A DNA stretch of 64,000 bases from an uncultured Alcaligenaceae bacterium (GCA_964444365.1 CAYUHJ010000009.1:5880-69879); one strand, 5' to 3'; positions 1-29,643 are shown, numbered from the stretch's first letter. Notes: a model not told the origin generated them from the sequence alone. A program made the numbers and translations.

Positions 1-536
1 CGGTCGTCCTCGACTTCGGCACCAGCGTCGTCGCGGAAGGGAAGGTGCGCGGCTACTTCCAGAAGAACGAACCGACGCCCGAGGGCTGGCTCCTCGATTC
101 GACCGGCAAGCCGACCACGAACGCGGGCGTACTCTACAACGACCCCCGCGGCACGATCCTCCCCTTCGGCGGGCAGCAAACCTACAAGGGGTTCGGCCTC
201 GGGTTGCTCATCGACCTGCTCACCGGCGGGCTCAGCGGCGGCCGGTGCAGCAACCCCGGCGACGCTCTCGCCGGCATCGGCAACGCCGTCGTGTTCACCG
301 TCTACGACCCCGCCGCGTTCGGGGGAACCGACTGCTTCCTGGCCCAAACCGACGGGCTGACGGGGTACGTCCGCGGCTGCCCACCGTCCGATCCGACGAA
401 GCCGATCACCCTTCCCGGCGACCCCGAACGGGCGATGAAGTCGGCCCGGCTCGCGGCAGGCATCGCCATCCCGGACGGAACATGGACGCTGATCCAGAAG
501 ACGGCCCAGGAACTGAGCGTCAGCGAACCAAAGTAA
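1..536 (+). CDS. Ldh_2 family (malate/L-lactate/ureidoglycolate-type) dehydrogenase, C-terminal part; the 5' end lies outside the window
   Basis: Frame 3 is open from the window edge to TAA at 534-536. The translation ...VVLDFGTSVVAEGKVRGYFQKNEPTPEGWLLDSTGKPTTN...LPFGGQQTYKGFGLGLLIDLLTGGLSG resembles the C-terminal half of Ldh_2 enzymes (recognised from memory). Confidence 0.6.
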   Translation, partial: VVLDFGTSVVAEGKVRGYFQKNEPTPEGWLLDSTGKPTTNAGVLYNDPRGTILPFGGQQTYKGFGLGLLIDLLTGGLSGGRCSNPGDALAGIGNAVVFTVYDPAAFGGTDCFLAQTDGLTGYVRGCPPSDPTKPITLPGDPERAMKSARLAAGIAIPDGTWTLIQKTAQELSVSEPK

Positions 537-13839: not shown

Positions 13840-16227
13840 TCAGGCGGGGAGGTCGATGACGATCGTCGCCCCGGTGCCCGGAACGCCCCGGGCGGCGATC
13901 GCCCCGCCGTGACGTTCGACAATCTTACGGCAAATCGCGAGCCCGATCCCGCTCCCTTCGTACTCGGCCCGGCCCTGGAGCCGCTGGAACACCTCGAAGA
14001 TCCGTTCCGCGTAGGCCTGCTCGAAGCCGATCCCGTTGTCGGCGACGGTCACCCGCCAGACCGCACTGTCGGCCGGCAGCGGGGCGGCGTCGGCCGGGAG
14101 TTCGCCGACCCGGCAGGCCGACACCGTGACGACCGGGGGCACGTCCGGCTTGTGGAACTTCAGCGCGTTCCCGAGCAGGTTCACGAACAGTTGCCGGAAC
14201 TGGCCGGGGTCGGCGGCAGAGAGCGTCGGGAGCGGCCCGATGTCGATCCGGCCTCCGGTCTGCGCGAGGCGAATCTCCAGGTCCGAGACGGCGTCCCGGG
14301 CGACCTCGGCCAGGTCGACGGGCTCGAACGTCCTGCCCCGCGTCGTCACCCGCGACAGCGACAGCAGGTCGTCGATCAAGACCCGCATTCGGGCGGCCGA
14401 CGCCAGCATCCGGTCGAGGTACTCTTTCCCCTGGTCGCCGAGCTCGGCCCGGTACTTCTTCGCCAGCCGGTCGCCGAACGCCTGAATCTTCCGGAGCGGC
14501 TCCTGCAGGTCGTGCGAGGCGACGTACGCGAACTGTTCCAGCTCGGCGTTGCTCGACGCCAGCGCCTTTTGTTGCTCCGTCAGCAGTGCCGTCCGATCGC
14601 GGACGAGGGCTTCCAAGTGTTCCGCCTCCCGCTTCTGGTCGTCGATGTCGGTACACGTCCCCACCCATCGGGTGACCGCACCGGCTTCGTCCTTCTGCGG
14701 AACGCCCCGCACCTTGAACCACCGGTAGCGATCGTGCCGACTGCGGATGCGAAACTCCACGTCGTACGCCGCGGTTCCGGCCACGGCCTTTTCCCACACC
14801 CGAAGGGTCGGGTCGCGGTCGTCCGGGTGGAGGCTCTCGAGCCAGCCGAAGCCCAGGTGGTTCGCGACCGGCACGCCGGTGTACTCCACCCATTGCCGGC
14901 TGAGGTAGTTGCACTCCCCGGAAGGGGACGTGGTCCAGACCATCTGGGGCGTCGCTTCGGTCAGGGTGCGGAACAGTTCCTCGCTGGCTTGAAGTTCGGA
15001 CTGAAGTCGTTTGACCTCATCGATATCTGTGCAAGTCCCGAACCACTGAACTACGTCTCCGCGTTCGTCCCGACGGGGCACCGCGCGGCCGATGAACCAC
15101 CGATACCGGCCGTCTCGACCCCGGAAGCGGTATTCGATCTCGTAGGGCTCCCCGGTGTCGGTGGCAAGCTTCCAGCGGGCCTCTGCCCGGGCCTTGTCGT
15201 CCGGGTGGAGTGGCCCACTCCAGCCGAAGCCGAGGCTCTCTTCGACGCTCTGGCCGGTGTACTCGTACCAACGCTGGTTGTAGTATTCGTGGTATCCGTC
15301 GGAACGGGTCACCCAGACAATTTGAGGAACCGATTCACTCAACAGTCGGAAGCGAGCTTCGCTTTCTTCGAGGTCCAGGGCCGCTTGAATGCGGATCGCG
15401 GCGTCCCGCTGCAGTTCCAATTGAGACCGGGCAAGAGCGTCGTTCGATTCCCGCAACTCGGCTAGAGTCTGGGAAACTTGCCGGCGGGCGTTCCGCTGCG
15501 CCTCTCCGAGCAACCCGACGGCGATCCCGCAAAACAAGAATGCCCCGGTGGCGATCTGATCCCGCGCCGCCGGAAGTTGCATCGTGCCACGGGGTTCGAT
15601 GAAGAAGTACACGGTCCCGACCAGCGTCCCGAGAAGGGTCAGCAGCGCGGGTCCGAACCCCCACCGCCACGCGAGGTAGACGACCGCCGTGAGCGGCAGG
15701 ATGTACAACTTTTCCCAGTCCAACAACGGGTCCAGCAGCGACCGGACGGCCAAACTCACGGCGATTGCGAGTACCGCCACAATGTACGCCGGTGCGCGAG
15801 CGTCCGACCACTCGTGGGGAACGGTGGGGGATCGGGGTTCGACCAGGCCCCGGTGGTCGACGAGCGCGAGCACCTTGGGGACCGCCGGGATCAGGGCCAC
15901 CACCGTCCCCCACGAGACGACCGCCGTGACCAGTTTCACGAGCCCCCCGAGCCGGTAGGCGGGGTAGTCGAACATGAGGGCTTCGAAAAAGTGGGTGAAG
16001 CCGCACGCGAGAATGAATGCCCCGAACAGCCAGAACAGGTGGTGGAACGGCAGCCCCCGCCGCTGCCGGGCGAAAAACCCGAGAACCACTGGGATAGAGA
16101 GGTACGCGAGCCAGATCAGCAGGTCGGACCCCCGGTGGAGCCAGATCAACCCCGTCGTCCAGTCGCCGCACGTTTTCCGGGGCACGAACCCGTCCGTGAC
16201 GAAGAGGTGGCGGAAAAACTCGAACAT
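13840..16227 (-). CDS. Membrane sensor histidine kinase: ethylene-receptor-like N-terminal TM domain, DUF4118-like TM block, two PAS domains, HisKA, HATPase_c
   Basis: N-terminus: GSDLLIWLAYLSIP...FGAFILACGFTH...KLVTAVVS (see findings). PAS-like: VWVTRSDGYHEYYNQRWYEYTG and MVWTTSPSGECNYLSRQWVEYTG. H-box: FAYVASHDLQEPLRKI. ATPase: NLLGNALKF...DNGIGFE...GSGIGLAICRKIVERHGG. Confidence 0.85.
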   Translation of the reverse strand: MFEFFRHLFVTDGFVPRKTCGDWTTGLIWLHRGSDLLIWLAYLSIPVVLGFFARQRRGLPFHHLFWLFGAFILACGFTHFFEALMFDYPAYRLGGLVKLVTAVVSWGTVVALIPAVPKVLALVDHRGLVEPRSPTVPHEWSDARAPAYIVAVLAIAVSLAVRSLLDPLLDWEKLYILPLTAVVYLAWRWGFGPALLTLLGTLVGTVYFFIEPRGTMQLPAARDQIATGAFLFCGIAVGLLGEAQRNARRQVSQTLAELRESNDALARSQLELQRDAAIRIQAALDLEESEARFRLLSESVPQIVWVTRSDGYHEYYNQRWYEYTGQSVEESLGFGWSGPLHPDDKARAEARWKLATDTGEPYEIEYRFRGRDGRYRWFIGRAVPRRDERGDVVQWFGTCTDIDEVKRLQSELQASEELFRTLTEATPQMVWTTSPSGECNYLSRQWVEYTGVPVANHLGFGWLESLHPDDRDPTLRVWEKAVAGTAAYDVEFRIRSRHDRYRWFKVRGVPQKDEAGAVTRWVGTCTDIDDQKREAEHLEALVRDRTALLTEQQKALASSNAELEQFAYVASHDLQEPLRKIQAFGDRLAKKYRAELGDQGKEYLDRMLASAARMRVLIDDLLSLSRVTTRGRTFEPVDLAEVARDAVSDLEIRLAQTGGRIDIGPLPTLSAADPGQFRQLFVNLLGNALKFHKPDVPPVVTVSACRVGELPADAAPLPADSAVWRVTVADNGIGFEQAYAERIFEVFQRLQGRAEYEGSGIGLAICRKIVERHGGAIAARGVPGTGATIVIDLPA

Positions 16228-16310
16228 GGCGACTCCGTCCCGTTCCGGTCTGCGAGAGGCGACCCGGTTGGTAGAATCCTAGCGGGCTACTCTTACACGT
16301 GGCAGAAATT

Positions 16311-16326
16311 TGGCGCGCCGCTTGCA
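16311..16326 (+). promoter_or_regulatory. Sigma54-type -24/-12 promoter candidate upstream of the NtrC-family activator
   Basis: TGGCGCGCCGCTTGCA versus the consensus TGGCACG-N4-TTGCW: one mismatch, correct GG-N10-GC spacing. It is about 70 nt upstream of the ATG at 16397 and has the same CCGC spacer as the 11741 site. Confidence 0.5.
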
Positions 16327-16396
16327 GGCAAATCTTCGCTCAGCAGGAAGCACGCTGCGTGCTCTCGAGAATCCCCCCGCCCGGGTCGAGCCGCTC

Positions 16397-17824
<1,428 letters not shown>

Positions 17825-17836
17825 CGACAACCGCCG

Positions 17837-18757
17837 TCAGCCCCCGCGGGGTCCGGCTTTCCACAGATACACGTCCTGCGAGTCGAACGGCCGAAACCCG
17901 TGCCGCTCGTAGAGCCGCAGGGCGGGGGCGTTCCGCACGTCGACGCTGAGGGTCAGCCACTCGGCCCCGGTGCCGCCGGCGTGGCGCAGGGTGAACCGCA
18001 GGCACTCGTCCCCGTGCCCCCGGCCGCGTGCGTCGGGAACCAACCCGACGTAACTCAACTCCGCCGTCGCCGCCCGGTTGGGCGGGCCGAACAGCAGCAC
18101 GCCGACCGGTTCGCCCCGGCAGGAGATGAGAAACCAGTCCGGGCGCTCCGTCGCCGACGCCCCCGCGGCGTACCCGGCGAGGACCTCCTCGCCGCTGCGA
18201 GTGCCGTTCAACTCGGGGCAGTCGAGGGTGCCTTCGTAAGTCGCAAGCAACACCGCGGCGAACTCGCGGGTCGGGCCGGGCACGGGGGTGAACTTGACCC
18301 GGCACGCGGCCGGGTCGAACGCCGGGAGCCCCGCCAGCCCCGGAATCGGACGGGACAGGAACGTCAGCTCCGTGACCCGGCGGAAGCCGACCCGTTCCAG
18401 GGCGGCGAAGCGCTCCCGGACGGCTTCCCGGCCGAAGGCGTGGGCGACCGTCACGCCGGACCCGGAGATCCGTTGAACTACCGCGTCGGCGACGGCGGCT
18501 GCGACGGTGTCGTCTTCTGCCCACGGCGGCCACGCCGCGGACGTGTTACCCGGCAACAGTTGGACCATCGCCGCTCCGACGACCCGGCCCGACCGTCGCG
18601 CCACGATCAATCCCGACGGATCGAGTTGCCCGGCTTCGAGCTGCCCGACGACCCGAGCCACGCTCGACGTGCGTTCCGGCTCCGGGGTGTGCGACACCAA
18701 CACGCGAACGGCGGCCGGCCAGTCCGCGGCGTCGGCGACGGAAGTGATGACGGACAT
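17837..18757 (-). CDS. Double-GNAT N-acetyltransferase (mycothiol-synthase-like architecture)
   Basis: Two acetyltransferase-like halves; the C-terminal half has VGLVPDARGRGHGDECLRFTL...RLYERHGF. Confidence 0.65.
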   Translation of the reverse strand: MSVITSVADAADWPAAVRVLVSHTPEPERTSSVARVVGQLEAGQLDPSGLIVARRSGRVVGAAMVQLLPGNTSAAWPPWAEDDTVAAAVADAVVQRISGSGVTVAHAFGREAVRERFAALERVGFRRVTELTFLSRPIPGLAGLPAFDPAACRVKFTPVPGPTREFAAVLLATYEGTLDCPELNGTRSGEEVLAGYAAGASATERPDWFLISCRGEPVGVLLFGPPNRAATAELSYVGLVPDARGRGHGDECLRFTLRHAGGTGAEWLTLSVDVRNAPALRLYERHGFRPFDSQDVYLWKAGPRGG

Positions 18758-18831
18758 GGAGGCGATCGGGAAGAACGAACAAGGCGGCGGGCACGCCCAC
18801 CGCCTTCAACGTTTGACTGGGGAGGATGGGG

Positions 18832-19212
18832 TTAGTAGCGGCCGCCGCCACCGCCACCGTACCCGCCGCCACCGCCGCCGTACCCGCCGCGGCCGCCGCC
18901 ACCGCCGCCGTACCCGCCGCGGCCGCCGCCACCGCCGCCGTACCCGCCGCGGCCGCCGCCACCGCCGCCTTCACGCGGCTTGGCTTCGTTGACGGTGAGC
19001 GGCCGACCGTCGAGTTGCGCGCCGTTCATGGCCGCGATCGCTGCATCCCCGCCGTCGCTCATTTCGACGAAAGCGAACCCGCGCGGGCGGCCGGTCTCCC
19101 GGTCCATGATGACCTGCACCTTCGTGACGGTGCCGTACTGGGAGAACACCTCCCGCAGCGTCGCCTCGGTCGTGGAGAAGGCCATGTTTCCGACGTACAA
19201 ATTCGTAGCCAC
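18832..19212 (-). CDS. RRM-type RNA-binding protein with a Gly/Arg/Tyr-rich tail
   Basis: The GTG at 19212 gives (M)ATNLYVGNMAFSTTEATLREVFSQYG (RNP2) and RGFAFVEM (RNP1), followed by a (GGGGGGRGGY)n tail. Confidence 0.85.
   Translation of the reverse strand: MATNLYVGNMAFSTTEATLREVFSQYGTVTKVQVIMDRETGRPRGFAFVEMSDGGDAAIAAMNGAQLDGRPLTVNEAKPREGGGGGGRGGYGGGGGGRGGYGGGGGGRGGYGGGGGGYGGGGGGRY
18871..18960. repeat. Three perfect tandem copies of a 30-bp unit inside the RNA-binding-protein gene
   Basis: accgccgccgtacccgccgcggccgccgcc at 18871-18900, 18901-18930 and 18931-18960. A degenerate copy lies at 18841-18870. The unit encodes GGGGGGRGGY. Confidence 0.95.
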
Positions 19213-19353
19213 GGTCGTGGTCCTCGGTGGCCCCGGAGGGCCGGTAGATTCACCGGGCAGACATCTGCCCGCGCTCATCGTACCCGCCCCGCCGCGAACC
19301 GCTACCTTATTCGTGCTACGATTCTGCGATTGTGCTGCGGGCCGAATTCCGAC

Positions 19354-20247
19354 TCACCGGGGACCGTCTCGGTGTTTGGCGTGGCACGAGGTGCAGGACT
19401 TGTGAATTCCTGCGAAGGATTCGGCGATCGCCCCGGCATCTTTGCCCGCCAGGGCCCGCTCGAAAGTCCGCCCCAAGCCTTCACTTTCCCGGAAAGCCGC
19501 GTGCAACCGGGCGTTCGCGGCCACCGCCGGAAGCCGTCCCGCCTCCCGGAAGTGTTCGACGATTTGCACCGCGTCCTCGGCGGAGTCGTTCGGCGACGGC
19601 CAGCCCTTCGCCTGTGCGGCTTTCAGCGAATCCCAGTGCTCGTCCACGCGGACCATCAGCCGGGTCAGGGTCGGAACCGCCGCGGTGTCCGGGAAGTCCG
19701 CCGGCGTCCGGGCCAGCTCCTCGGCCGACGGGCGGGTGAACGTCCGCGGGATCGCGACCAGCCCCCGATACCGCGGGTCGGTGCCGGCCTCCCGCATCCA
19801 CGCTTCCGCGCGAGCTGGCGTGAACCCCGGTTCGAGAGCGAGCAGCGCGCACGAAGCCGCCGCCGGCCCGCGGTGCATCCCGTGATGGCAATGAACGTAC
19901 ACCGGCCCCGGCAGCTCCCGCACGGCCTTCACGATGGCGAGGGCTTTGTCCCGCGAAATGCCGTCGTACCCGATCGGAACGTGAACGTACCGGAGCCCGT
20001 GTTTCTTCGCCCCAGTCACATCCGGCACCGCGCCGTCGACGGAAAGAACGGTCCGCACCCCGAGCTGGCGCAGAGACGCGAAGCCGGCGTCGCCCTCCGG
20101 ACTGCCGCCGCTGAAGACCCGATCGCCGATGCGGAAGACGTTGTGCAACCCGGCCGCCCCGACTCGCACCGGGGTCGGCGGCGGGTCCGGCGGGGCCCGC
20201 CAACACCCCACTGCGACGGCCAGGATCACGGGAATCAGATACTTCAC
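19354..20247 (-). CDS. Exported or anchored fusion protein: PTP/DUF442-like phosphatase domain plus a C-terminal cytochrome c'-like four-helix heme domain
   Basis: The GTG at 20247 gives (M)KYLIPVILAVAVGC (signal/anchor, possible lipobox). PTP loop: VYVHCHHGMHRGPAAAS (HCx5R). C-terminus: ...AIAESFAGIHKSCTSCHAKHRD, with a CxxCH placed as in cytochrome c'. Confidence 0.6.
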   Translation of the reverse strand: MKYLIPVILAVAVGCWRAPPDPPPTPVRVGAAGLHNVFRIGDRVFSGGSPEGDAGFASLRQLGVRTVLSVDGAVPDVTGAKKHGLRYVHVPIGYDGISRDKALAIVKAVRELPGPVYVHCHHGMHRGPAAASCALLALEPGFTPARAEAWMREAGTDPRYRGLVAIPRTFTRPSAEELARTPADFPDTAAVPTLTRLMVRVDEHWDSLKAAQAKGWPSPNDSAEDAVQIVEHFREAGRLPAVAANARLHAAFRESEGLGRTFERALAGKDAGAIAESFAGIHKSCTSCHAKHRDGPR

Positions 20248-21875
20248 CGCAAGCCTCGGACGCAATCTCGGATCACGACGCACAGGCTCACCCACGCCGT
20301 CCCGAGTAAGCCGGATGCCATCACGTCCGTCGGCCAGTGGACGCCGAGGTAGACCCGGGTCCACCCCACGCCGACGGCTGCCGCGACGAGCCCGAGCGCT
20401 GCCGGCCACGTCCACCACGCCCATCTCCGCGACAGCAGCACGGCGACGAACGCCCCGGCGAGGCCGACCGCGCGAAGGGTGTGCCCGCTGGGGAAACTAT
20501 ACTCGCCGATCGCCGTCAAGGCGTCGGCGGGGGCCGGGCGGGTGACGGCGTACCAGGATTTCGCAACGAGTTCGATCGCCACGGTGCCGAGCATGGCGGC
20601 GAGGAACAGCACCCCGGCCGACCGGTGCCGGCGCAGGAACGCCACGACCGCGGCCGCGACGCCGATGAAGACCGCCGGCCCGCCGCCCCCGAGCGTGGTG
20701 ACCGCGTTCGCGAACGAATCGAGTGCCGGCGTCGCCGCGGACCGGACGTCGGCCCGCACTGCGAGGTTCCAGTCGTCCCACCGGCCGGCGGTCACGCCGG
20801 TGGCCAGGACCGCGAACTCGCACAGGCACAGAACCGCGAGCAGGAGGGTGAACAGCGTGGCGGACGGCCCCGACCGGAGGACGTTCAAGACGCCCGCGAC
20901 GACGCCGAACAGCCGTCGCCCGAGGTCGCCGAACCGCGTGTTCCCGACCCACCCGAGCCGCGGCGACCGCCGGTACCCCGGCCCGACGTACACCCGGACC
21001 GCCCGCGGGACCGCCGCGAACGTGAACCGTTTCCCCTCGACGAGTTCGCCGTCGAAACTGAGCGGCAGCGGTTCCTCGGCGGTGAGCTCGACCCGCTTCG
21101 CCCGGCGGTGCGTGACGTTGTCGTCGGTGACGTAGTCGCCGGCGAGCAGGCGGGCCGCGATGACGCCCTGGTCCAGCGTGGAGTCGACGGCGTGAACCAG
21201 CACCACGTCGAGCCGGCCGTCTTCCGGGTCGGCCCGCGGGGCGACGACGTACCCGCCGGCCGCGGTGCGAGCGTTCGCGACGACGATGTTGAGCACGTCG
21301 AGCGTTTCCGTCTGCTTCCCGTCGTACCGAAGGGTCACGCGGAACTTCGGCGGATCGGCGATCGTCCCGGCGGCCCCGCGGAGGTACGCCAGCGGCCCCC
21401 ACGCGGCCTTCAAGTCGGACGTCACCTCCGCCGCGACCTTCCCGCTGAACCCGCCGGTCGCGACGTTCGCCAGGAACCCGGACCAGTCGCCGTCCACGCG
21501 GACCGCGTCGACCCCGCGGGTCCGGTTCCGCTTCAGCAGCCCGACCGCCTCGACCGGGTCCAGCGGCACGGCGAGCGTCCGGCAAAAGTCGTTGCCGGTG
21601 CCGAGCGGAAGGAGGAGCAGCGACACCCGGGGAAAGTCCGGGCCGAGGGCGTTGACGACGCCGTGAATGGTGCCGTCGCCCCCGGCGACCGCCAGCACAT
21701 CCACGCCGGCCTTGAGAGCCGCCTGCACCTGTTCGCGCAACTCCCGCTCCGGATCGACGGACACGAGCGACACGCCTGGGGTCGCTGCGAGCGCGGCGCG
21801 GACGGCCTCACCCTGTCCGGCGGACCCGGCCTTCGGGTTGAGCAGCAAGGCGAAGCGCAACGGTTTCATGGGCAT
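20244..21875 (-). CDS. Fusion of a diacylglycerol/lipid kinase catalytic domain (YegS/LCB5-like) with a membrane PAP2 phosphatase
   Basis: N-terminus: LLLNPKAGSAG...LAVAGGDGTIHGVVNAL...LPLGTGNDF. C-terminal TM region carries the PAP2 motifs AVTRP, SFPSGHT and RVYLGVHWPTDV. The stop overlaps the GTG of the downstream gene (GTGA at 20244-20247). Confidence 0.8.
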   Translation of the reverse strand: MPMKPLRFALLLNPKAGSAGQGEAVRAALAATPGVSLVSVDPERELREQVQAALKAGVDVLAVAGGDGTIHGVVNALGPDFPRVSLLLLPLGTGNDFCRTLAVPLDPVEAVGLLKRNRTRGVDAVRVDGDWSGFLANVATGGFSGKVAAEVTSDLKAAWGPLAYLRGAAGTIADPPKFRVTLRYDGKQTETLDVLNIVVANARTAAGGYVVAPRADPEDGRLDVVLVHAVDSTLDQGVIAARLLAGDYVTDDNVTHRRAKRVELTAEEPLPLSFDGELVEGKRFTFAAVPRAVRVYVGPGYRRSPRLGWVGNTRFGDLGRRLFGVVAGVLNVLRSGPSATLFTLLLAVLCLCEFAVLATGVTAGRWDDWNLAVRADVRSAATPALDSFANAVTTLGGGGPAVFIGVAAAVVAFLRRHRSAGVLFLAAMLGTVAIELVAKSWYAVTRPAPADALTAIGEYSFPSGHTLRAVGLAGAFVAVLLSRRWAWWTWPAALGLVAAAVGVGWTRVYLGVHWPTDVMASGLLGTAWVSLCVVIRDCVRGLR

Positions 21876-21896
21876 CGCAGGTGAGCGAGGACGAGT

Positions 21897-23723
21897 TCAC
21901 GATCGGCCGCGTAAATCCACGGTGGCGTCGACCACGGCCACGGAACGGTCGACCTTCTTCGCGGAGCGAATGCCCGACGACAGTAAGACCGCGTCTGGGC
22001 GGGCCGCCCACCATTCGGCCGCGCAGTCCGCGTTCCAGTCCGAGGCACACGCGCAGTCCGCCAGCGCCCGCTTCAGGCTCGCCGCGTCCGGGTAGCGTGC
22101 CCCCGGCGCTTTGGACAGACACCGCAGCACCACGGCTTCCAGGTCCGCGGGCACGTCCACGCCGCGGCGGGACGGCGGCACGACGGGCTCCTTCGTGTGG
22201 GCCACGATCTGCTCCAGGATCGTGTGGCCGTCGAACGGCGGGCGACCAGTCAGCAGAAAGTATGCCACGGCCCCGAGGGCGTACAGGTCGCTCCGGGCGT
22301 CGGACACGCCGCCGAGGAGTCCCTGTTCCGGGGCCATGTACGCCGGGGACCCGCTGATGCTCGCGGACTCGGCCGGTTCCTCGCCGCCCGAAACTTGCCG
22401 GACGAGGCCGAAGTCGAGCAGTTTGGCCACGTCCGGCACGCCGCCGCGGGTCGCCGCGAAGATGTTCGCGGGCTTGATGTCGCGGTGAATCAGCCCCTTC
22501 TCGTGGGCCTCCCGCAACGCATCACAGACCTGTGATAACAAATACACCGCCCGCCCCGGCGGCATCGGTCCATCCATTCGGACGAGGTCCGCGAAACTTA
22601 ACCCGGTGAGGAGTTCCATCACGTAGTAAAAGGTGCCGTCGTCGGTTCGCCCGTAGTCGTAAATCTCGACGGTGTTCCAGTGCGACAGCCGTGCGGTGGC
22701 CCGGACCTCCTTCTCGAACCGCGACACGGCTTCCGGGTCGGCGTCGATGCCGGGGCGGATCAGCTTGATGGCACAGTCGCGCTTGAGAAGTTCGTGTTCC
22801 GCTCGGTAGACCTCGCCCATGCCGCCGCTGCCGAGTTGTTCCTTGAGCCGGTACTGGCCGAACTTCTTCGCGCGAAAGACCTCCTTCCGGACCCCCGCGA
22901 TGTAGTGCGAGTAGACCATCCCTTCCAGCACCGCGAGCATCACCACCGGGAACGGCGTGCCGTGGTGCAGCGAGTCGAACGCCTCCTGCACCCGCGGTTC
23001 ATACAAGCCCAATAAGTATTGACTGAGGTAGGGTACACACCCCGCCGGGAACATGTATCGAAACGCCCGCTGCCAGGTGTTCGGGATGAGCAAGCCATAC
23101 GTGACGATGTTCAACACCCAGACCGCGTGGACGAAGTAGGCGTCCATGATGACGGTGGGGTATTCTCCCGCGCGGGCGCTCTGGACCATCAGCGCGCCCG
23201 GCATCAGGGTGATCTGCACCGCGACCGTGCCGAAGACGAGGAGTTCGATCCGCCGCAGCCACCGCATCGAGAGCGGCCGGGGGTTTCGCACCCGAACGAA
23301 GCAGAGCGATTCGATCAGGATGAACGCGAGCCGGGGGATCAGAAAGGGGTGCTGGGTCGTCGGGATCAGGGCGATGCTCATCGCCAGCGCGGTGACGAGC
23401 GATACGATCTGCAACCGGCGGCGGAGCAGGGCGGCGGTCTCGGCGTCGAACTCGTGGACGACGTTGTCCACCCGCACCTTCGGCGACGAGTCCCGCGGGA
23501 CCGGCGGCGGTGGGGTCGGCGGGTGCGTCGCGGCCATCGCGAGCAGGCGGTCGACCGGCACGGCCGGTGTGGACAGGAAACTCCCGGCCGCGTCGTGGGC
23601 GTGCAGCAGGGCGTCGACCTTCGCCCGCAAGGCCAGATCCTGGCACGCGGCGTCCAGGAACCGGCGGCGCGCGGCGGCGTCGGGTTGATCCAGCGCTTCG
23701 AGAAACAGCGACCGCTGGTTCAC
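21897..23723 (-). CDS. Ser/Thr protein kinase with a helical N-terminus, a multi-TM block and a C-terminal kinase domain
   Basis: GQYRLKEQLGSGGMGEVYRAEH...AIKLI...HRDIKPANIF...DFGL...GSPAYMAPE. The N-terminus SLFLEALDQPDAAARRRFLDAACQD is typical of planctomycete kinases. The GTG start at 23723 overlaps the Uma2 stop. Confidence 0.85.
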   Translation of the reverse strand: MNQRSLFLEALDQPDAAARRRFLDAACQDLALRAKVDALLHAHDAAGSFLSTPAVPVDRLLAMAATHPPTPPPPVPRDSSPKVRVDNVVHEFDAETAALLRRRLQIVSLVTALAMSIALIPTTQHPFLIPRLAFILIESLCFVRVRNPRPLSMRWLRRIELLVFGTVAVQITLMPGALMVQSARAGEYPTVIMDAYFVHAVWVLNIVTYGLLIPNTWQRAFRYMFPAGCVPYLSQYLLGLYEPRVQEAFDSLHHGTPFPVVMLAVLEGMVYSHYIAGVRKEVFRAKKFGQYRLKEQLGSGGMGEVYRAEHELLKRDCAIKLIRPGIDADPEAVSRFEKEVRATARLSHWNTVEIYDYGRTDDGTFYYVMELLTGLSFADLVRMDGPMPPGRAVYLLSQVCDALREAHEKGLIHRDIKPANIFAATRGGVPDVAKLLDFGLVRQVSGGEEPAESASISGSPAYMAPEQGLLGGVSDARSDLYALGAVAYFLLTGRPPFDGHTILEQIVAHTKEPVVPPSRRGVDVPADLEAVVLRCLSKAPGARYPDAASLKRALADCACASDWNADCAAEWWAARPDAVLLSSGIRSAKKVDRSVAVVDATVDLRGRS

Positions 23724-24322
23724 GTGATGGGCTCTCGCAGCGGCCGCGACGGGGGGAACGCGACCCCGCGGTAGACGTCCGCCATCGGAACGCGGAGCGG
23801 AACGAAGTCCAGCACGAACTCGGCGTCGAGTCCGATGACTTCGACGAGTACCCAGCGCCCGTCCGGCTGTCGGATCCGTCGCTCGATCGCGGGTTCGTCC
23901 TGGAAGACGAGGACGTATTCACGAAGCGATTCGATTTGTTTGTAGTGCCGAAACTTCACTGTCCGGTCGTACCGTTCGGTCGACGGGGAGAGGACTTCGA
24001 TCAGCACTGTTGGATTAATCAATGTGTCACGGTCGAGTGGATCGTATTCACCCGGACCACACACAATTCCCAAGTCCGGGTAGGTGTATAACCCGGTGGG
24101 ATCGACTTTGACGCGAAGGTCCGCGGCAAACCCCTCGCACGGCCCGCCACGGAGTCGCACTCCGAGCTCCACCGTGAGGTTGTAACTCACACGGTTATGT
24201 TCCCGACTGGCCCCCGCCATCGCGAACATTTCGCCGTCGTAGAACTCGCTCTTGAACTCGGCCGCCTTCTCGATGGCCAGGTACTCGGCCACCGTGAGTT
24301 TCTTCTTCGGTACCGCGGTCAT
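23720..24322 (-). CDS. Uma2 (DUF820) family putative endonuclease, copy 2
   Basis: The ATG at 24322 gives MTAVPKKKLTVAEYLAIEKAAEFKSEFYDGEMFAMAGASREHN...PDLGIVCG...IEVLSPSTERYDR, the PD-(D/E)xK-like Uma2 signature. Confidence 0.8.
   Translation of the reverse strand: MTAVPKKKLTVAEYLAIEKAAEFKSEFYDGEMFAMAGASREHNRVSYNLTVELGVRLRGGPCEGFAADLRVKVDPTGLYTYPDLGIVCGPGEYDPLDRDTLINPTVLIEVLSPSTERYDRTVKFRHYKQIESLREYVLVFQDEPAIERRIRQPDGRWVLVEVIGLDAEFVLDFVPLRVPMADVYRGVAFPPSRPLREPIT
24207..24307. repeat. 101-bp tract identical to 24830-24930 (the 5' ends of the two Uma2 genes)
   Basis: Direct comparison of the two stretches shows identity across 101 nt. The first differences appear just beyond each end. Downstream, the paralogs share only roughly half of their residues. 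Confidence 0.9.
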
Positions 24323-24342
24323 GGGATCCTCGGGGCTGACAC

Positions 24343-24948
24343 TTATTCGCGCTCCGGGCGAAGCGTGGCCGGCGAGACCAATTCCACATCTCGGTACAGT
24401 CTCGCAAGTGAGACGCGAACCGGCACGGCCGACATTTCGAGAAATGAGTCCGAACCGGAGAAGGTGGTCAGGGTCCATTTCTCGTTCGGCTGACGCACGA
24501 GGCTTTGGACCAAAATCGCCGATTGGGACACCAGGATGTATTCCCGCAGGGACGGGATGGTTTGGTAGTGAAGGAACTTGGTTCCTCGGTCGTACCGTTC
24601 CGTCGAGGGGGACAGGATTTCCACAATCGCGAGCGGGTTGATGAGCGCATCGCGGTCGTCGGGGTCGTACTGCGCCCCGCCGCACACGATGACCACGTCC
24701 GGGTAGGTCGACAGTCCAGTCGCTTGAACCCGGACGCGCTGATCGCTCGAATACGTCCGGCACGGGCCGCCGTCCAGTCGGCTTCCGATATCGATGACCA
24801 AGTTGTTATGGAGTGCGTTGTGTTCGCGGCTGGCCCCCGCCATCGCGAACATTTCGCCGTCGTAGAACTCGCTCTTGAACTCGGCCGCCTTCTCGATGGC
24901 CAGGTACTCGGCCACCGTGAGTTTCTTCTTGGGTACAGCGGTCATCAT
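24343..24948 (-). CDS. Uma2 (DUF820) family putative endonuclease, copy 1
   Basis: MMTAVPKKKLTVAEYLAIEKAAEFKSEFYDGEMFAMAGASREHN...PDVVIVCG...VEILSPSTERYDR. From MTAV to REHN (43 residues) it is identical to the first 43 residues of copy 2. Confidence 0.8.
   Translation of the reverse strand: MMTAVPKKKLTVAEYLAIEKAAEFKSEFYDGEMFAMAGASREHNALHNNLVIDIGSRLDGGPCRTYSSDQRVRVQATGLSTYPDVVIVCGGAQYDPDDRDALINPLAIVEILSPSTERYDRGTKFLHYQTIPSLREYILVSQSAILVQSLVRQPNEKWTLTTFSGSDSFLEMSAVPVRVSLARLYRDVELVSPATLRPERE
24830..24930. repeat. 101-bp tract identical to 24207-24307
   Basis: See the partner entry. The offset between the copies is 623 bp, in direct orientation. Confidence 0.9.
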
Positions 24949-24963: not shown

Positions 24964-25518
24964 TCACGCCTCCATCTCACGATACAGCCACGCCCGCGCG
25001 AAGGCCCACAGCCGCTCCGCGGTTCGCTGCGAGAGGCCGAGGCAGTCCGCCGCTTGGGCGGACGTCAGGCCCGAGAAGTACCGCAACTGGACGAGTTGGG
25101 CCGCCTCCGCGTCTTCGGCGGCGAGCCGGGTCAGGGCCGCGTCGAGGGCCACCAGATCGACCACCCCCTCGTCCGTGGCGGCGTGGACCTCGTCGAGTGG
25201 GACGCGAGTTCGGCCGCCGCCGCGCTTGAGGCTGTGCTTCTTCCGGGCGTGGTCGACCAGGATCCGCCGCATGGACTCCGCGGCGGCGGCGTAGAAGTGG
25301 CCGCGGTGACTCCACGAAACGTCTTCGGCGGTGCCGACGAGCCGGAGGTAGGCTTCGTGGACGAGTGCGGTCGCGTTCAGCGTGTGGCCGGCGGATTCGC
25401 GGGCGAGGCGGAGGGCCGCCAGGCGGCGGAGTTCGTCGTACACGAGGGGAAGAAGTTGGTCGGCGGCCGCGCGATCGCCACCGTGAACGGCCGCCAGGAT
25501 TCGCGTGACATCGTCCAT
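24964..25518 (-). CDS. ECF-type RNA polymerase sigma factor (kinase-associated planctomycete/acidobacterial type)
   Basis: MDDVTRILAAVHGGDRAAADQLLPLVYDELRRLAALRLARE..LNATALVHEAYLRLVG, with region 4 LRYFSGLTSAQAADCLGLSQRTAERLWAFARAWL. Confidence 0.85.
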   Translation of the reverse strand: MDDVTRILAAVHGGDRAAADQLLPLVYDELRRLAALRLARESAGHTLNATALVHEAYLRLVGTAEDVSWSHRGHFYAAAAESMRRILVDHARKKHSLKRGGGRTRVPLDEVHAATDEGVVDLVALDAALTRLAAEDAEAAQLVQLRYFSGLTSAQAADCLGLSQRTAERLWAFARAWLYREMEA

Positions 25519-27040: not shown

Positions 27041-29098
27041 ATGCGAACCGCCCTCGCGATCCTGCTCCTCGCCGGAGGCCCGGCCATGACCGCCCTGTCC
27101 GACGAAGGCATGTGGCTGCCCAACGACCCGCCGCGGGAGCTGCTGACAAAGAAGTACGACTTCGACCTGACGGACGCCTGGCTCGACCGGGCCACGCACG
27201 GGTCCGTCCGCTTCAACAACGGCGGGTCCGGCGGGTTCGTCTCCGCGGACGGGCTGATCGTCACGAACCACCACATCGCCGCGGATGCGTTGCAAAAGCT
27301 CTCCGGCCCTGGCAAAGACCTGTTCGCGGACGGGTTTGTCGCCAAGACGCGGGCGGACGAACTGAAATGCCCCGACCTGGAACTGAACGTGTTGCAGTCG
27401 ATCGAGGACGTGACCGCACGGGTGAACGCGGCCGTGAAGGACGGCATGAAACCGGCCGAGGCGTTCGCGGCCCGGCGGGCGGTCATGGGCGAGATCGAGA
27501 GCGAGTCGCTGAAAAAGACGGGGCTGCGGTCGGACATCGTCACGCTCTACAACGGCGGGGCGTACCACCTCTACCGCTACAAGAAGTACACCGACATCCG
27601 CCTCGTGTTCGCCCCGGAGGCGGGTATCGCGGCGTTCGGCGGGGACGTGGACAACTTCGAGTACCCCCGGCACGGGCTCGACGTGGCGTTCTTCCGGGCC
27701 TACGAGAAGGGCGAACCCGCGAAGGTGACTCACTTCTTCAAGTGGAGCGAAACCGGCCCGGCGGAGAACGACCTCGTCTTCGTCACCGGCCACCCCGGCA
27801 CGACGCAACGGCTGGAAACCCTCGCGAAATTGAAGCACCGCCGGGACGCGACGCTGCCGTACACGCTGTATCGGCTTCGCACCCTGGAAGCGGCCCTGAC
27901 GCAGTATTCCGAGGCCGACCCCGAGCAACGCCGCCAGGCCGCGACGGACCTGCACCGCGTCGCGAATGCGCGGAAGGCGTTCAGCGGGCAGCTGCAGGGG
28001 TTGCTCGACCCCAAGATTCTCGCGCAGAAGACCGACGGGGAGGACGCCATCGCCACCCGCCTCCAGGACGCGAAAGCCTACCGGGAGGCGGTCGACAAAG
28101 TGACGGCGGTGCAGAAAACGTTCCGCCCCTTCGAACGGGAGTACGCCCTGCTCGAACGCGGCGATGCGTTCTTCACGGATTTCCTGCCGATCGCCCGGCA
28201 CCTGGTGCGGCTCGGTGACGAACTCCCGAAGAAGTCCCCGGACCGGCTGCGGGAATACCGCGAATCGAACCTCGAATCGCTGAAATTCCAGCTCTTCAGC
28301 CCCGCGCCGATCTACCCGGACCTGGAGCGGGCCAAGCTCACCGCGTCGCTCACGTTCCTCGCCGAGAACCTGGGCGGCGAACACCCGCTGGTCGTGGCGG
28401 TCCTCGCCGGGAAGAACCCCGCCAACCGCGCCGCGGAACTGATCGCGGGGACCAAACTCGCGAACGTCGACGAACGCAAGAAGCTGTTCGACGGCGGCAA
28501 AACTGCCGTGGACGCCAGCACGGACACGATGATCGTGCTTGCCCGCACCGTCGACGCCGAAGCCCGAAAGCTCCGCAAACGCTACGAGGAAGAAGTCGAG
28601 GAACCCGAACGCCAGGCCTACGCCGAGATCGCGAAAGCCCGCTTCGCCGCCTTCGGCAAGACCATCGCCCCGGACGCGACATTCACCCTCCGCCTCGCGT
28701 TCGGCACCGCCAAGGGGTACGAAGTGGACGGTAAAACACTGCCGTTCCACACCACGTTCGGCAGCGCCTTCGAGAAGGCCACCAAGCTCGGCCACCGCGA
28801 CCCGTTCGACTTGCCAAAGCGGTGGAAAGACGGCAAGGACAAGCTCGACCTGACGACGCCGTTCGACTTCGTCAGCACGGCGGACACGATCGGCGGCAAC
28901 AGCGGCTCGCCGGTCCTCAACCGCGCCGGCGAACTCGTCGGCATCAACTTCGACCGCAACCGCCACGGCCTGGTGCGGAACTTCGTCTACACCGACGTGC
29001 AAGCCCGCCACATCGCCGTGCATTCGCGAGCGGTGTTGGAGGCGCTGCGAAAGCTGTACGACGCCGAACCGCTGGTGAAGGAACTGACCGGGAAGTGA
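27041..29098 (+). CDS. Peptidase family S46 (dipeptidyl-peptidase 7/11-like) with a signal peptide
   Basis: MRTALAILLLAGG..SDEGMWLP..., GGSGGFVSADGLIVTNHHIA (catalytic His region) and TIGGNSGSPVLNRAGELVGINFD (catalytic Ser). Confidence 0.85.
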   Translation: MRTALAILLLAGGPAMTALSDEGMWLPNDPPRELLTKKYDFDLTDAWLDRATHGSVRFNNGGSGGFVSADGLIVTNHHIAADALQKLSGPGKDLFADGFVAKTRADELKCPDLELNVLQSIEDVTARVNAAVKDGMKPAEAFAARRAVMGEIESESLKKTGLRSDIVTLYNGGAYHLYRYKKYTDIRLVFAPEAGIAAFGGDVDNFEYPRHGLDVAFFRAYEKGEPAKVTHFFKWSETGPAENDLVFVTGHPGTTQRLETLAKLKHRRDATLPYTLYRLRTLEAALTQYSEADPEQRRQAATDLHRVANARKAFSGQLQGLLDPKILAQKTDGEDAIATRLQDAKAYREAVDKVTAVQKTFRPFEREYALLERGDAFFTDFLPIARHLVRLGDELPKKSPDRLREYRESNLESLKFQLFSPAPIYPDLERAKLTASLTFLAENLGGEHPLVVAVLAGKNPANRAAELIAGTKLANVDERKKLFDGGKTAVDASTDTMIVLARTVDAEARKLRKRYEEEVEEPERQAYAEIAKARFAAFGKTIAPDATFTLRLAFGTAKGYEVDGKTLPFHTTFGSAFEKATKLGHRDPFDLPKRWKDGKDKLDLTTPFDFVSTADTIGGNSGSPVLNRAGELVGINFDRNRHGLVRNFVYTDVQARHIAVHSRAVLEALRKLYDAEPLVKELTGK

Positions 29099-29109
29099 GT
29101 GACACCCCC

Positions 29110-29643
29110 ATGTCACGGCTCTCGTTTCGCAGAGCACTGACGGCCTTCGTCGCGGTACTGGCCGTGGCATGGGCGGCGAACGTCGCTGTCGATTACGCCA
29201 TCGCGGAGCCGCCGAACTACAGCCAGATCGAACCGGGGTTGTACCTCGGCGGGTCGGTTCCGCGACCGCCGCGGGGGGTGACAGCGGTGCTGAACCTCTG
29301 CGAAGTCGAAGACCGGTACACGGCCGAGGTTCACTCCTGGCAACCGATCGCTGACGCTGCCCCCGCGCCCGACCTTGCATGGCTGCGTCGTCAGGTGGAC
29401 TTCGTCCGCGAGCACCGCACGGCGGGGCGGGCAATGTTCGTCCACTGCCACGCGGGGGTCAGTCGGAGTGCGATGGTCACGGCCGCATTCCTCATGGCCG
29501 ACCGCGGGCTGACGCGGGACGAGGCCCTGCGGCGTCTCCGCGAAGTTCGACCCCAGGTTCGCCCCAACCCGGCATTCATGGAACGGCTTACGGAATGGGA
29601 GAGGGAACTTCGCTCGGCCCCGTCGCGAGCCTGTCGAACTTGA
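29110..29643 (+). CDS. Membrane-anchored dual-specificity protein phosphatase
   Basis: The ATG at 29110 gives MSRLSFRRALTAFVAVLAVAWAA..., with the active-site loop VHCHAGVSRSAMVTAAFLM. It lies 11 nt after the S46 gene. Confidence 0.8.
   Translation: MSRLSFRRALTAFVAVLAVAWAANVAVDYAIAEPPNYSQIEPGLYLGGSVPRPPRGVTAVLNLCEVEDRYTAEVHSWQPIADAAPAPDLAWLRRQVDFVREHRTAGRAMFVHCHAGVSRSAMVTAAFLMADRGLTRDEALRRLREVRPQVRPNPAFMERLTEWERELRSAPSRACRT

Follow-up and report, generated by a model that had tools for sequence, protein, structure and literature searches.

We analyzed a stretch of 64,000 nucleotides (GCA_964444365.1 CAYUHJ010000009.1:5880-69879; this whole stretch is called the window) that carries two overlapping genes, here named gene A and gene B, on its minus strand. 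Gene A (20244..21875) encodes a 543-amino acid YegS/DgkB-type lipid kinase fused to a PAP2 membrane phosphatase, and gene B (19354..20247) encodes a 297-amino acid exported protein in which a Cys-phosphatase-fold domain is fused to a class II cytochrome c domain. On balance, and with only modest confidence, we favor the interpretation that the two products are functionally unrelated, that gene A makes a lipid-recycling membrane enzyme, and that gene B makes a periplasmic phosphohydrolase that takes part in phosphate scavenging and carries a redox heme. Gene A and gene B are not linked outside close kin of the window, and gene B belongs to a large family of its own. Positions given below are those of the window, and all features within the two genes lie on the minus strand.

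Adjacency of genes A and B is confined to a narrow lineage

A preliminary description of the window had placed two open reading frames (ORFs) at these positions on the minus strand, with a GTGA stop/start overlap, and all of this was found in the sequence. Gene A ends in ...TTG CGG TGA; the final G of CGG forms the GTGA overlap (20244..20247) with the stop codon, and the first three bases of this overlap are the GTG start codon of gene B. The GTG start is supported by the three closest homologues of gene B, because these were called independently at 297 amino acids and align with 100% coverage. A start at the alternative ATG (20424) would extend the overlap with the conserved PAP2 coding sequence of gene A to 181 nt. 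Given the 4-nt overlap, genes A and B are very probably co-transcribed in the lineage of the window.

The preliminary description had presented the two genes as a coupled lipid-signalling pair and had set their linkage in other genomes, beforehand, as a test on which the claim would stand or fall. We searched with gene A (tblastn, E ≤ 1e-3) around gene B homologues (~6 kb). Gene A was near gene B at none of the 80 best loci from species-representative genomes and at none of the 14 loci taken from relatives (within ±6 kb at most; contig ends cut three of these loci short). Among 14 metagenome loci, several of which are short contigs, two were positive (L107 and L108). Both are close kin of the window, with 85% identity in gene B and 94-95% in gene A, and L108 has the identical 4-nt overlap and the gene order extracytoplasmic function (ECF) sigma factor, Uma2, Ser/Thr kinase, gene A, gene B. 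The same-genus genome G001 carries a gene A orthologue (65% identity) on contig C2 and a gene B homologue (52%) on contig C16, and in genome G018 gene A (C300) and gene B (C177) also lie on separate contigs. The neighbors of the gene A orthologue are CYTH, DUF2071 and DUF1501 genes in G001 and genes for an S9 peptidase and a HAD hydrolase in G018; none is shared, and neither orthologue adjoins a Ser/Thr kinase gene or gene B. We rejected a conserved two-gene system on these grounds, and the coupled pair did not survive its own test. Because only close kin of the window were positive, the adjacency of genes A and B is a recent, local, lineage-specific juxtaposition. The two genes would have become adjacent and overlapping only in a narrow Gemmataceae-like lineage.

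The preliminary description had gone further and proposed that a gas-binding cytochrome c' in gene B senses nitric oxide (NO), carbon monoxide (CO) or redox conditions and controls a phosphatase that acts with gene A on envelope lipid phosphorylation. The 4-nt overlap, the order Ser/Thr kinase, gene A, gene B that is kept in L108, and the predicted exposure of both the PAP2 site and gene B to the periplasm are consistent with such a scheme. The linkage results speak against it, as does the distribution of the two genes: among 41 related genomes, full-length gene B homologues are present in 15 and the full fused form of gene A in only three (the window's own genome G000, and G001 and G018), with ten others matching the kinase part alone. 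The properties of the heme domain also bear on this scheme and are described below.

Gene A joins a lipid kinase and a PAP2 phosphatase in one polypeptide

Pfam domain calls were judged against curated cut-offs, and NCBIfam models were treated likewise. In gene A, the domains DAGK_cat (residues 8-127; 77.2 bits, cut-off 23.6), YegS_C (residues 142-296; 78.1 bits, cut-off 27) and PAP2 (residues 422-535; 65.7 bits, cut-off 27.2) were all above threshold, and the protein also passes the NCBIfam model TIGR00147 for YegS/Rv2252/BmrU lipid kinases (142.9 bits, cut-off 118.65). The kinase part, made up of DAGK_cat and YegS_C (residues 8-296; 20988..21854), has intact GGDGT and LGTGNDF motifs and is predicted to be cytoplasmic, with a Lys/Arg-rich stretch before the first membrane helix. 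The PAP2 domain (20271..20612) retains the motifs KSWYAVTRP (Kx6RP), PSGH and TRVYLGVHWPTD (SRx5Hx3D). The preliminary description had noted a YegS-type kinase and a PAP2 phosphatase in one polypeptide, and the Pfam domains, TIGR00147 and the motifs bear this out.

A hydropathy and charge scan placed six membrane segments after residue 335. Stretches rich in Lys and Arg precede helix 1, connect helix 2 to helix 3, follow helix 4 and recur at the C-terminus, and the PAP2 motifs lie in the other loops, which are predicted to be periplasmic. Given a cytoplasmic kinase, the phosphatase site is predicted to face the periplasm, which is the usual orientation of bacterial PAP2 enzymes, and the kinase and phosphatase sites are predicted to act on opposite faces of the membrane.

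Among NCBIfam models, the best PAP2 match of gene A was the undecaprenyl-diphosphatase SepP (E 7.3e-15, far below its cut-off); PgpB was matched at E 4.8e-8, and gene A reached no equivalog cut-off. Approximately 100 of the 120 best gene A homologues have the three-domain form, under record titles that read only 'YegS/Rv2252/BmrU family lipid kinase' or 'diacylglycerol kinase', and we found no study of a YegS-PAP2 fusion in the open-access literature. The kinase part also matches positions 246-539 of the 546-position NCBIfam model PRK12361 ('hypothetical protein'; E 2.3e-26), which points to another family that has a YegS-like kinase behind an N-terminal part of ~245 residues.

The product of gene A would be a cytoplasmic YegS/DgkB-type kinase tethered to a six-helix PAP2 domain whose catalytic motifs face the periplasm, an arrangement that seems typical of this bacterial group. 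With its two activities predicted on opposite membrane faces, the enzyme would be better suited to recycle a lipid phosphate or a lipid carrier than to run a futile cycle, and the fusion is a candidate for lipid-carrier recycling.

The exported part of gene B has a Cys-phosphatase fold and a His-rich P-loop

The gene B protein begins with VKYLIPVILAVAVGC, which in translation reads as a signal peptide (residues 1-15; 20203..20247) with a lipobox-like AVGC, in agreement with the signal or anchor noted in the preliminary description. We built a family profile from 64 aligned members, and conservation counts in this text refer to these 64. A lipobox-like pattern is present within the first 70 residues in 29 of them, and the protein is probably lipid-anchored through Cys15.

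Residues 30-181 (19705..20160) have the alpha-beta fold of protein tyrosine phosphatases and dual-specificity phosphatases (PTP/DSP), and are TpbA/DUF442-like by sequence profile, Foldseek and VIA-align. Searched against the PDB, the family profile matched TpbA with E 3.4e-13 and the DUF442 entry 3gxg with E 8.2e-7. The AlphaFold2 model of gene B (mean pLDDT 96.0, pTM 0.90) matched TpbA in Foldseek (4r0s; E 7.6e-7, TM score 0.76 on the target). For the phosphatase domain, VIA-align also gave TpbA 4r0s (Z 17.4, root-mean-square deviation 2.8, 154 residues aligned), along with VHZ (Z 16.7), Siw14 (Z 16.1), DUF442 entries 3gxg (Z 15.6) and 2f46 (Z 13.5), and many DSPs with Z down to 13. The full-length Foldseek search returned phosphatases only, and matches to the heme domain surfaced only with VIA-align.

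The Cys-based loop HCHHGMHRG that had been recognized previously lies at residues 119-127 of this exported domain. It provides the HCx5R signature of the P-loop (HCHHGMHR, residues 119-126), and the extended motif HCHHGMHRGP (residues 119-128; 19864..19893) contains Cys120 as the predicted nucleophile and Arg126 as its predicted partner. Conservation of the loop is high: His119, His122, Gly123, His125 and Arg126 are present in all 64 sequences, Cys120 in 63, His121 in 62, Pro128 in 61 and Gly127 in 59. Position 124, the fourth variable position of the loop, is Lys or Arg in 48 members and Lys in 41, and the His at the fifth is invariant. Upstream of the loop, Asp95 aligns with the loop Asp of TpbA. 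Eight of the 64 members match Pfam Y_phosphatase2 (PF03162), and 12 match BLH_phosphatase at E ≤ 0.001.

A study of AtPFA-DSP1 (PMC9038691) gives the P-loop residues of that enzyme as Cys150, Lys151, Arg152, Lys154, His155 and Arg156, describes their side chains as gripping the many phosphates of inositol pyrophosphates, and reports a 95-98% loss of activity upon mutation of His155. The HCxxGKHR pattern of the gene B family recalls this P-loop of the PFA-DSP/Siw14 type, which is suited to polyanions. The N-terminal domain of gene B would be a Cys-based phosphohydrolase with the atypical dual-specificity fold, in which Cys120 acts as the nucleophile and Arg126 binds the phosphate. His121, His122, His125 and, in most members, Lys124 would line the pocket, arranged as in the Lys/Arg/His-rich P-loop of inositol-pyrophosphate phosphatases.

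The structural matches also suggest a different function, in which gene B would be a TpbA-like periplasmic signalling phosphatase acting on Tyr, Ser or Thr of a membrane signalling protein, with the heme as a redox switch. TpbA is the closest solved relative by profile, Foldseek and VIA-align alike, and is described in PMC4409338 as a dual-specific tyrosine phosphatase that controls biofilm formation. The P-loop argues against this function, since the loop of gene B is lined with His and lacks Ser/Thr after the Arg, as compared to HCKHGNNRTG in TpbA. Neighboring genes and fusion partners, considered below, also bear on this proposal, which we judge to be unlikely.

The C-terminal domain is a class II cytochrome c with a probable six-coordinate heme

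Residues 191-297 of gene B (19357..19677) form a four-helix bundle, with helices at 193-213, 219-243, 246-267 and 271-292 in the AlphaFold2 model. The heme c attachment motif CTSCH (Cys285, Cys288 and His289; 19381..19395) is at residues 285-289, nine residues from the C-terminus, so that the four-helix segment ending in CTSCH was correctly recognized in the preliminary description. CxxCH is invariant (64 of 64), and Arg293 is invariant or nearly so.

Searches for Cytochrom_C_2 (PF01322), which the preliminary description had suggested, gave a split result. The window's own protein does not reach the curated score (16.9 bits, cut-off 26.5; E 0.013), and 32 of the 64 family members match at E ≤ 0.001 (best 2.3e-8). 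The family profile matched class II cytochromes c in the PDB with E values from 4.5e-5 to 1e-3, including 4cx9 (4.5e-5), c-type variants of b562 (7.4e-5) and cytochromes c' (7.5e-5 and weaker); a search of the PDB with the single gene B sequence found no cytochrome at E ≤ 10, and only the profile recovered them. For residues 191-297, VIA-align gave 6r6n_A of the Kuenenia Kusta0087/88 complex (Z 15.0, root-mean-square deviation 2.5, 105 of 111 residues), cytochromes c' 6a3k (Z 13.9) and 2ccy (Z 13.0), and b562 fusions at Z ~13, a level that helical bundles may reach from the arrangement of helices alone. The class II assignment is firm because of the placement of CxxCH and the sequence-profile matches; the four-helix bundle and the C-terminal CxxCH that characterize class II cytochromes c are both present. 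The gene B protein would be exported, and heme c would be added covalently in the periplasm at Cys285, Cys288 and His289. Genome G000 encodes three Cytochrom_C_asm proteins above the cut-off.

Met198 (19654..19656), in helix 1 and invariant in all 64 members, is the predicted sixth (distal) heme ligand. Met198 corresponds to state 202 of the family profile and His289 to state 300. The b562 match aligns states 201-304 with residues 6-106, and by gapless counting Met198 corresponds to residue 7 and His289 to residue 102, which we take to be the two axial heme ligands of b562. Similarly, range 25..132 of 6r6n_A aligns with 191..297 of the model, and gapless counting puts residue 32 of 6r6n_A at Met198. 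The 6r6n_A entry is a C32M/C101M mutant, and Cys32 is presumably the distal ligand in the Kuenenia protein. Both b562 and c-556 have six-coordinate heme ligation. The invariant Met at the distal position indicates that the heme of gene B is probably six-coordinate (His289/Met198) and of the electron-transfer type, rather than a five-coordinate gas binder such as the NO/CO-binding cytochromes c'. Judged from the alignment ranges, the lack of a distal protein ligand that marks cytochromes c' does not apply to gene B. The earlier assignment to cytochrome c' is upheld as to the class II fold, by profile, structure and CxxCH, and not as to the five-coordinate, gas-binding subtype.

These results bear on the proposed gas-responsive control of envelope lipid phosphorylation. 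In the structure comparison, the heme domain matched best to the Kuenenia Kusta0087/88 complex, which PMC11897245 describes as a nitric-oxide-binding cytochrome c complex, and one family member is fused to a phosphatidylinositol phospholipase C (PI-PLC), an enzyme acting on lipid head groups. Both observations fit a gas-sensing lipid system. The invariant Met at the reckoned distal position argues against a gas-binding heme and, with the genes unlinked elsewhere, leaves such control highly improbable. The claim of a gas-sensing lipid-signalling operon can be dropped.

Contig C32 of genome G000 (L126, 589-1692, plus strand) encodes a second exported protein that ends in a class II cytochrome-like motif, CTACHNEYRD. 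Its gene is ~1.8 kb from a Porin_O_P gene (C32:11514-12581).

Family distribution, fusion partners and neighbors of gene B

Gene B homologues are numerous. We found 1668 proteins at E ≤ 0.001 among 8000 candidates examined, 2200 representative clusters (50% identity) at E ≤ 0.001, 807 of them at E ≤ 1e-30, and at least 580 loci in species-representative genomes. By record titles, some of which look mislabelled, most carriers belong to Planctomycetota (Gemmatales, Isosphaeraceae, Pirellulales) and Verrucomicrobiota, and a few to Armatimonadota and Hydrogenedentales. Singulisphaera acidiphila DSM 18658 (locus L050) is a carrier that has been cultured. The closest named homologues of genes A and B are from Gemmata, Urbifossiella, Fimbriiglobus and Gemmataceae, and genome G000 has one full-length copy of gene B. 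HCHHGxHR was present in 261 of 270 collected family proteins, 251 of which also have CxxCH in the last 40 residues. ESM Atlas lists the family clusters as 'hypothetical protein', and 'DUF442 family' is the label given to many homologues by another source. This large family is unnamed and, in the literature found, unstudied; no description of a heme-coupled PTP-fold member was found in the open-access literature.

In other genomes and metagenomes, we identified eight fused forms of the gene B module, all of which keep HCHHG[K/R]HR and CxxCH. The partner is an alkaline phosphatase in two (P0395, an 837-amino acid protein whose cluster has 6 members, and P0397), an Exo_endo_phos (EEP) domain in P0396, a Ca-dependent PI-PLC in P0237 (E 2.1e-102), a concentrative nucleoside transporter in P0398, the chromate-resistance domain ChrB_C in P0195, a PDZ domain in P0393 and a TIM-barrel domain in P0394.

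We surveyed neighbors at 108 loci, two of which are the same place. At five of them (L016, L019, L083, L088 and L090), which span at least three lineages, the gene B homologue has a gene for a phosphate-selective porin O/P (Porin_O_P) directly beside it, at a distance of no more than ~1 kb, and the five genomes checked have only 2-5 Porin_O_P genes each. Searches by tblastn with the fused parts found no separate neighboring gene for alkaline phosphatase, PI-PLC, EEP, ChrB_C or nucleoside transporter at the 108 loci. When 755 ORFs from the 80 loci were clustered, DUF1559/N_methyl genes recurred at 16 loci, histidine kinases at 8, DUF1501 genes at 7, and Ser/Thr kinases and PSCyt/DUF1549/DUF1553 genes at 5 each. 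These are expanded planctomycete families that we regard as background, and conserved neighbors of gene B were rejected.

Together, the phosphate-related fusions, the Porin_O_P neighbors and the polyanion-type P-loop make hydrolysis of phosphoesters or phosphoanhydrides in the periplasm the best-supported activity. The domain folds, the motifs with their conservation and the lack of conserved linkage are shown by the data, and what kind of substrate gene B acts on, its part in phosphate acquisition and the function of the heme are inferred. As part of phosphate scavenging, gene B would act in the periplasm on small phosphoesters or phosphoanhydrides of high charge, which it would hydrolyze, and its heme would link the state of the catalytic cysteine, a residue prone to oxidation, to the redox conditions of that compartment.

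The same surveys bear on a TpbA-like signalling role. Near gene B, histidine kinases recur at 8 and Ser/Thr kinases at 5 of the 80 loci, and in the window a Ser/Thr kinase gene is two genes upstream. These kinase families are so hugely expanded that chance would account for such proximity, and no individual kinase is found repeatedly. In addition, the fusion partners are hydrolases and a transporter, not signalling domains.

Several observations weigh against periplasmic phosphate scavenging by an enzyme unrelated to gene A. Canonical Cys-phosphatases have Ser or Thr directly after the P-loop Arg, a feature that gene B lacks (Gly127 in most members, Ser in only 3 of 64). The presumed general acid, Asp95, is kept in only 51 of 64 members; PFA-DSPs, as stated in PMC9038691, act without such an Asp. 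The gene B protein of the window matched the phosphatase models of Pfam only below the curated cut-offs: Tc-R-P (25.8 bits, cut-off 27; E 1.7e-5), PTP-SAK (21.5, cut-off 27), DSPc (17.4, cut-off 33.5) and BLH_phosphatase (17.4, cut-off 26.1; E 0.0054). The His/Met ligation of the heme is derived from alignment-range arithmetic, not from coordinates or spectra. Fusions are few, with eight forms in a family of thousands, and ChrB_C, PDZ and the TIM barrel are not phosphate-related. Porin adjacency is seen at only five of the 108 loci, and two genomes of the same genus as L016/L019 are without it. Most neighbors of gene B are uninformative because they belong to hugely expanded planctomycete families. 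In genome G024, a gene pair of the LMWPc and SBF families (L024, 7438-8923, plus strand) is divergent from the gene B homologue; this pair is read as arsC/ACR3-like and hints at other oxyanions, and homology queries found no second such pair at the 108 loci. No paper on the gene B family or on a phosphatase-cytochrome c fusion was found in the open-access literature. Lastly, given the 4-nt overlap and the likely co-transcription, there may be a local functional link between genes A and B.

Some of these points would fit an enzyme of redox or sulfur-transfer chemistry, in which the P-loop Cys would bind a tetrahedral oxyanion or sulfane sulfur (thiosulfate, arsenate or chromate) and the heme would pass electrons to or from it. 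A His/Met heme is an electron carrier, the P-loop Arg is not followed by Ser/Thr, ChrB_C is the partner in one of the fusions, and the arsC/ACR3-like pair occurs at one locus. The DUF442 domain of Blh, which has the phosphatase fold, works as a sulfur transferase according to PMC5823870, and gene B has weak matches to BLH_phosphatase and to the NCBIfam sulfur-transferase models Blh (E 3.8e-4) and TIGR01244 (E 0.017). All scores against the sulfur-transferase models fall far short of the cut-offs, and TpbA is a closer relative of the gene B family than DUF442 is. Furthermore, the recurring neighbor clusters include no sulfur-oxidation or arsenic genes (not every neighbor was scanned), the LMWPc/SBF pair was seen once, and phosphoesterase fusions (four forms) outnumber redox-related ones. 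We consider such chemistry quite unlikely. A further proposal is that the periplasmic enzymes of the gene B family are of a new kind, with a His/Met c-type heme wired to a His-lined Cys/Arg P-loop. Electron exchange between the heme and the active-site Cys could then either gate a phosphatase according to the redox state of the periplasm or carry out redox chemistry on a bound tetrahedral oxyanion (arsenate, chromate or thiosulfate); we give this a small but appreciable chance.

It is unusual for a Cys-phosphatase fold to be paired permanently with a c-type cytochrome. If the heme controls or protects the catalytic Cys, it would be a built-in solution for a thiol enzyme in an oxidizing periplasm. 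Gene B would also be a candidate route for the use of organic phosphate or polyphosphate in abundant soil and freshwater bacteria.

Surroundings of genes A and B in the window

The window is G+C-rich (0.60-0.74 per 2-kb block), and its sequence was present in four DNA runs of one biofilm-metagenome study, with no RNA run among those listed. A Ser/Thr protein kinase gene (21897..23723, minus strand; Pkinase E 7.6e-40) lies 21 nt ahead of gene A. The same order of kinase and gene A is repeated in the close relative L108, and the kinase does not adjoin the gene A orthologues of G001 and G018. It is a context gene and no conserved partner. Directly 3' of gene B is a gene for a small protein of the RNA recognition motif (RRM) type with a repeated tail rich in Gly, Arg and Tyr (18832-19278, minus strand). 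The first terminator-like hairpin 3' of gene B comes after the RRM-protein gene (18781..18806, minus strand; 11-pair stem with 8 G-C pairs, from a consensus scan only) and is the only strong one in the area. A promoter scan of 18700-24000, which does not cover planctomycete promoters, found none.

Two tandem genes for Uma2-family endonucleases (23720-24948, minus strand) separate the Ser/Thr kinase gene from a gene for an ECF sigma factor (24964-25518). Because L108 has a single Uma2 gene at the corresponding place, the tandem in the window suggests a recent duplication or insertion. Farther away, a PAS histidine kinase gene (13840-16227, minus strand), whose product matches ETR1_N, an ethylene-receptor-like membrane domain, at its N-terminus (E 2.8e-35), adjoins a sigma-54 activator gene (16310-17824, plus strand). 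At 28822-29643 (plus strand; probable start near 29113), 9 kb from gene B and just after the gene for a 685-amino acid exported protein (27041-29098, plus strand), is an ORF resembling a classic dual-specificity phosphatase, with the P-loop VHCHAGVSRS and a hydrophobic N-terminus. This ORF is a weak match to the gene B family profile (E 8e-4).

Comparison with known systems

The kinase part of gene A is like the soluble kinases YegS, DgkB and Rv2252, as judged by its score above the TIGR00147 cut-off, and its PAP2 part resembles bacterial PAP2 phosphatases (PgpB, SepP and BcrC types), with SepP and PgpB as best matches. Gene A differs from both YegS-type kinases and bacterial PAP2 enzymes in that it joins the two in one polypeptide.

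The phosphatase-fold domain of gene B can be compared to three groups. TpbA of Pseudomonas aeruginosa (PA3885; PDB 4r0s and 2m3v) is likewise periplasmic, with an atypical DSP fold, an HCxHGxxR P-loop and an aligned loop Asp. It has ~21% identity to gene B, lacks a heme domain, and has the P-loop HCKHGNNRTG with Thr after the Arg, whereas gene B has three extra invariant His and RGP. The DUF442/BLH_phosphatase proteins (PF04273; 3gxg, 2f46 and the sulfur transferase Blh) share the fold, but Blh pairs its DUF442 domain with a dioxygenase in the cytoplasm and not with a cytochrome c. The PFA-DSP/Siw14 enzymes (Y_phosphatase2) have the HCxxGKHR P-loop pattern, and Siw14 is structurally close as noted above (Z 16.1). 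They differ from gene B in being eukaryotic and cytosolic, in having Lys/Arg at the positions of His121 and His122 and Thr after the Arg, and in having no heme domain.

The C-terminal domain of gene B is similar to the class II c-type cytochromes (c', c-556, b562 and the Kuenenia NaxLS protein 6r6n) in having a four-helix bundle whose last helix ends in CxxCH, with a basic residue after the motif. In contrast to these cytochromes, the bundle of gene B is fused behind an enzyme domain, and Met198, the predicted distal ligand, makes it resemble the six-coordinate members of the class.

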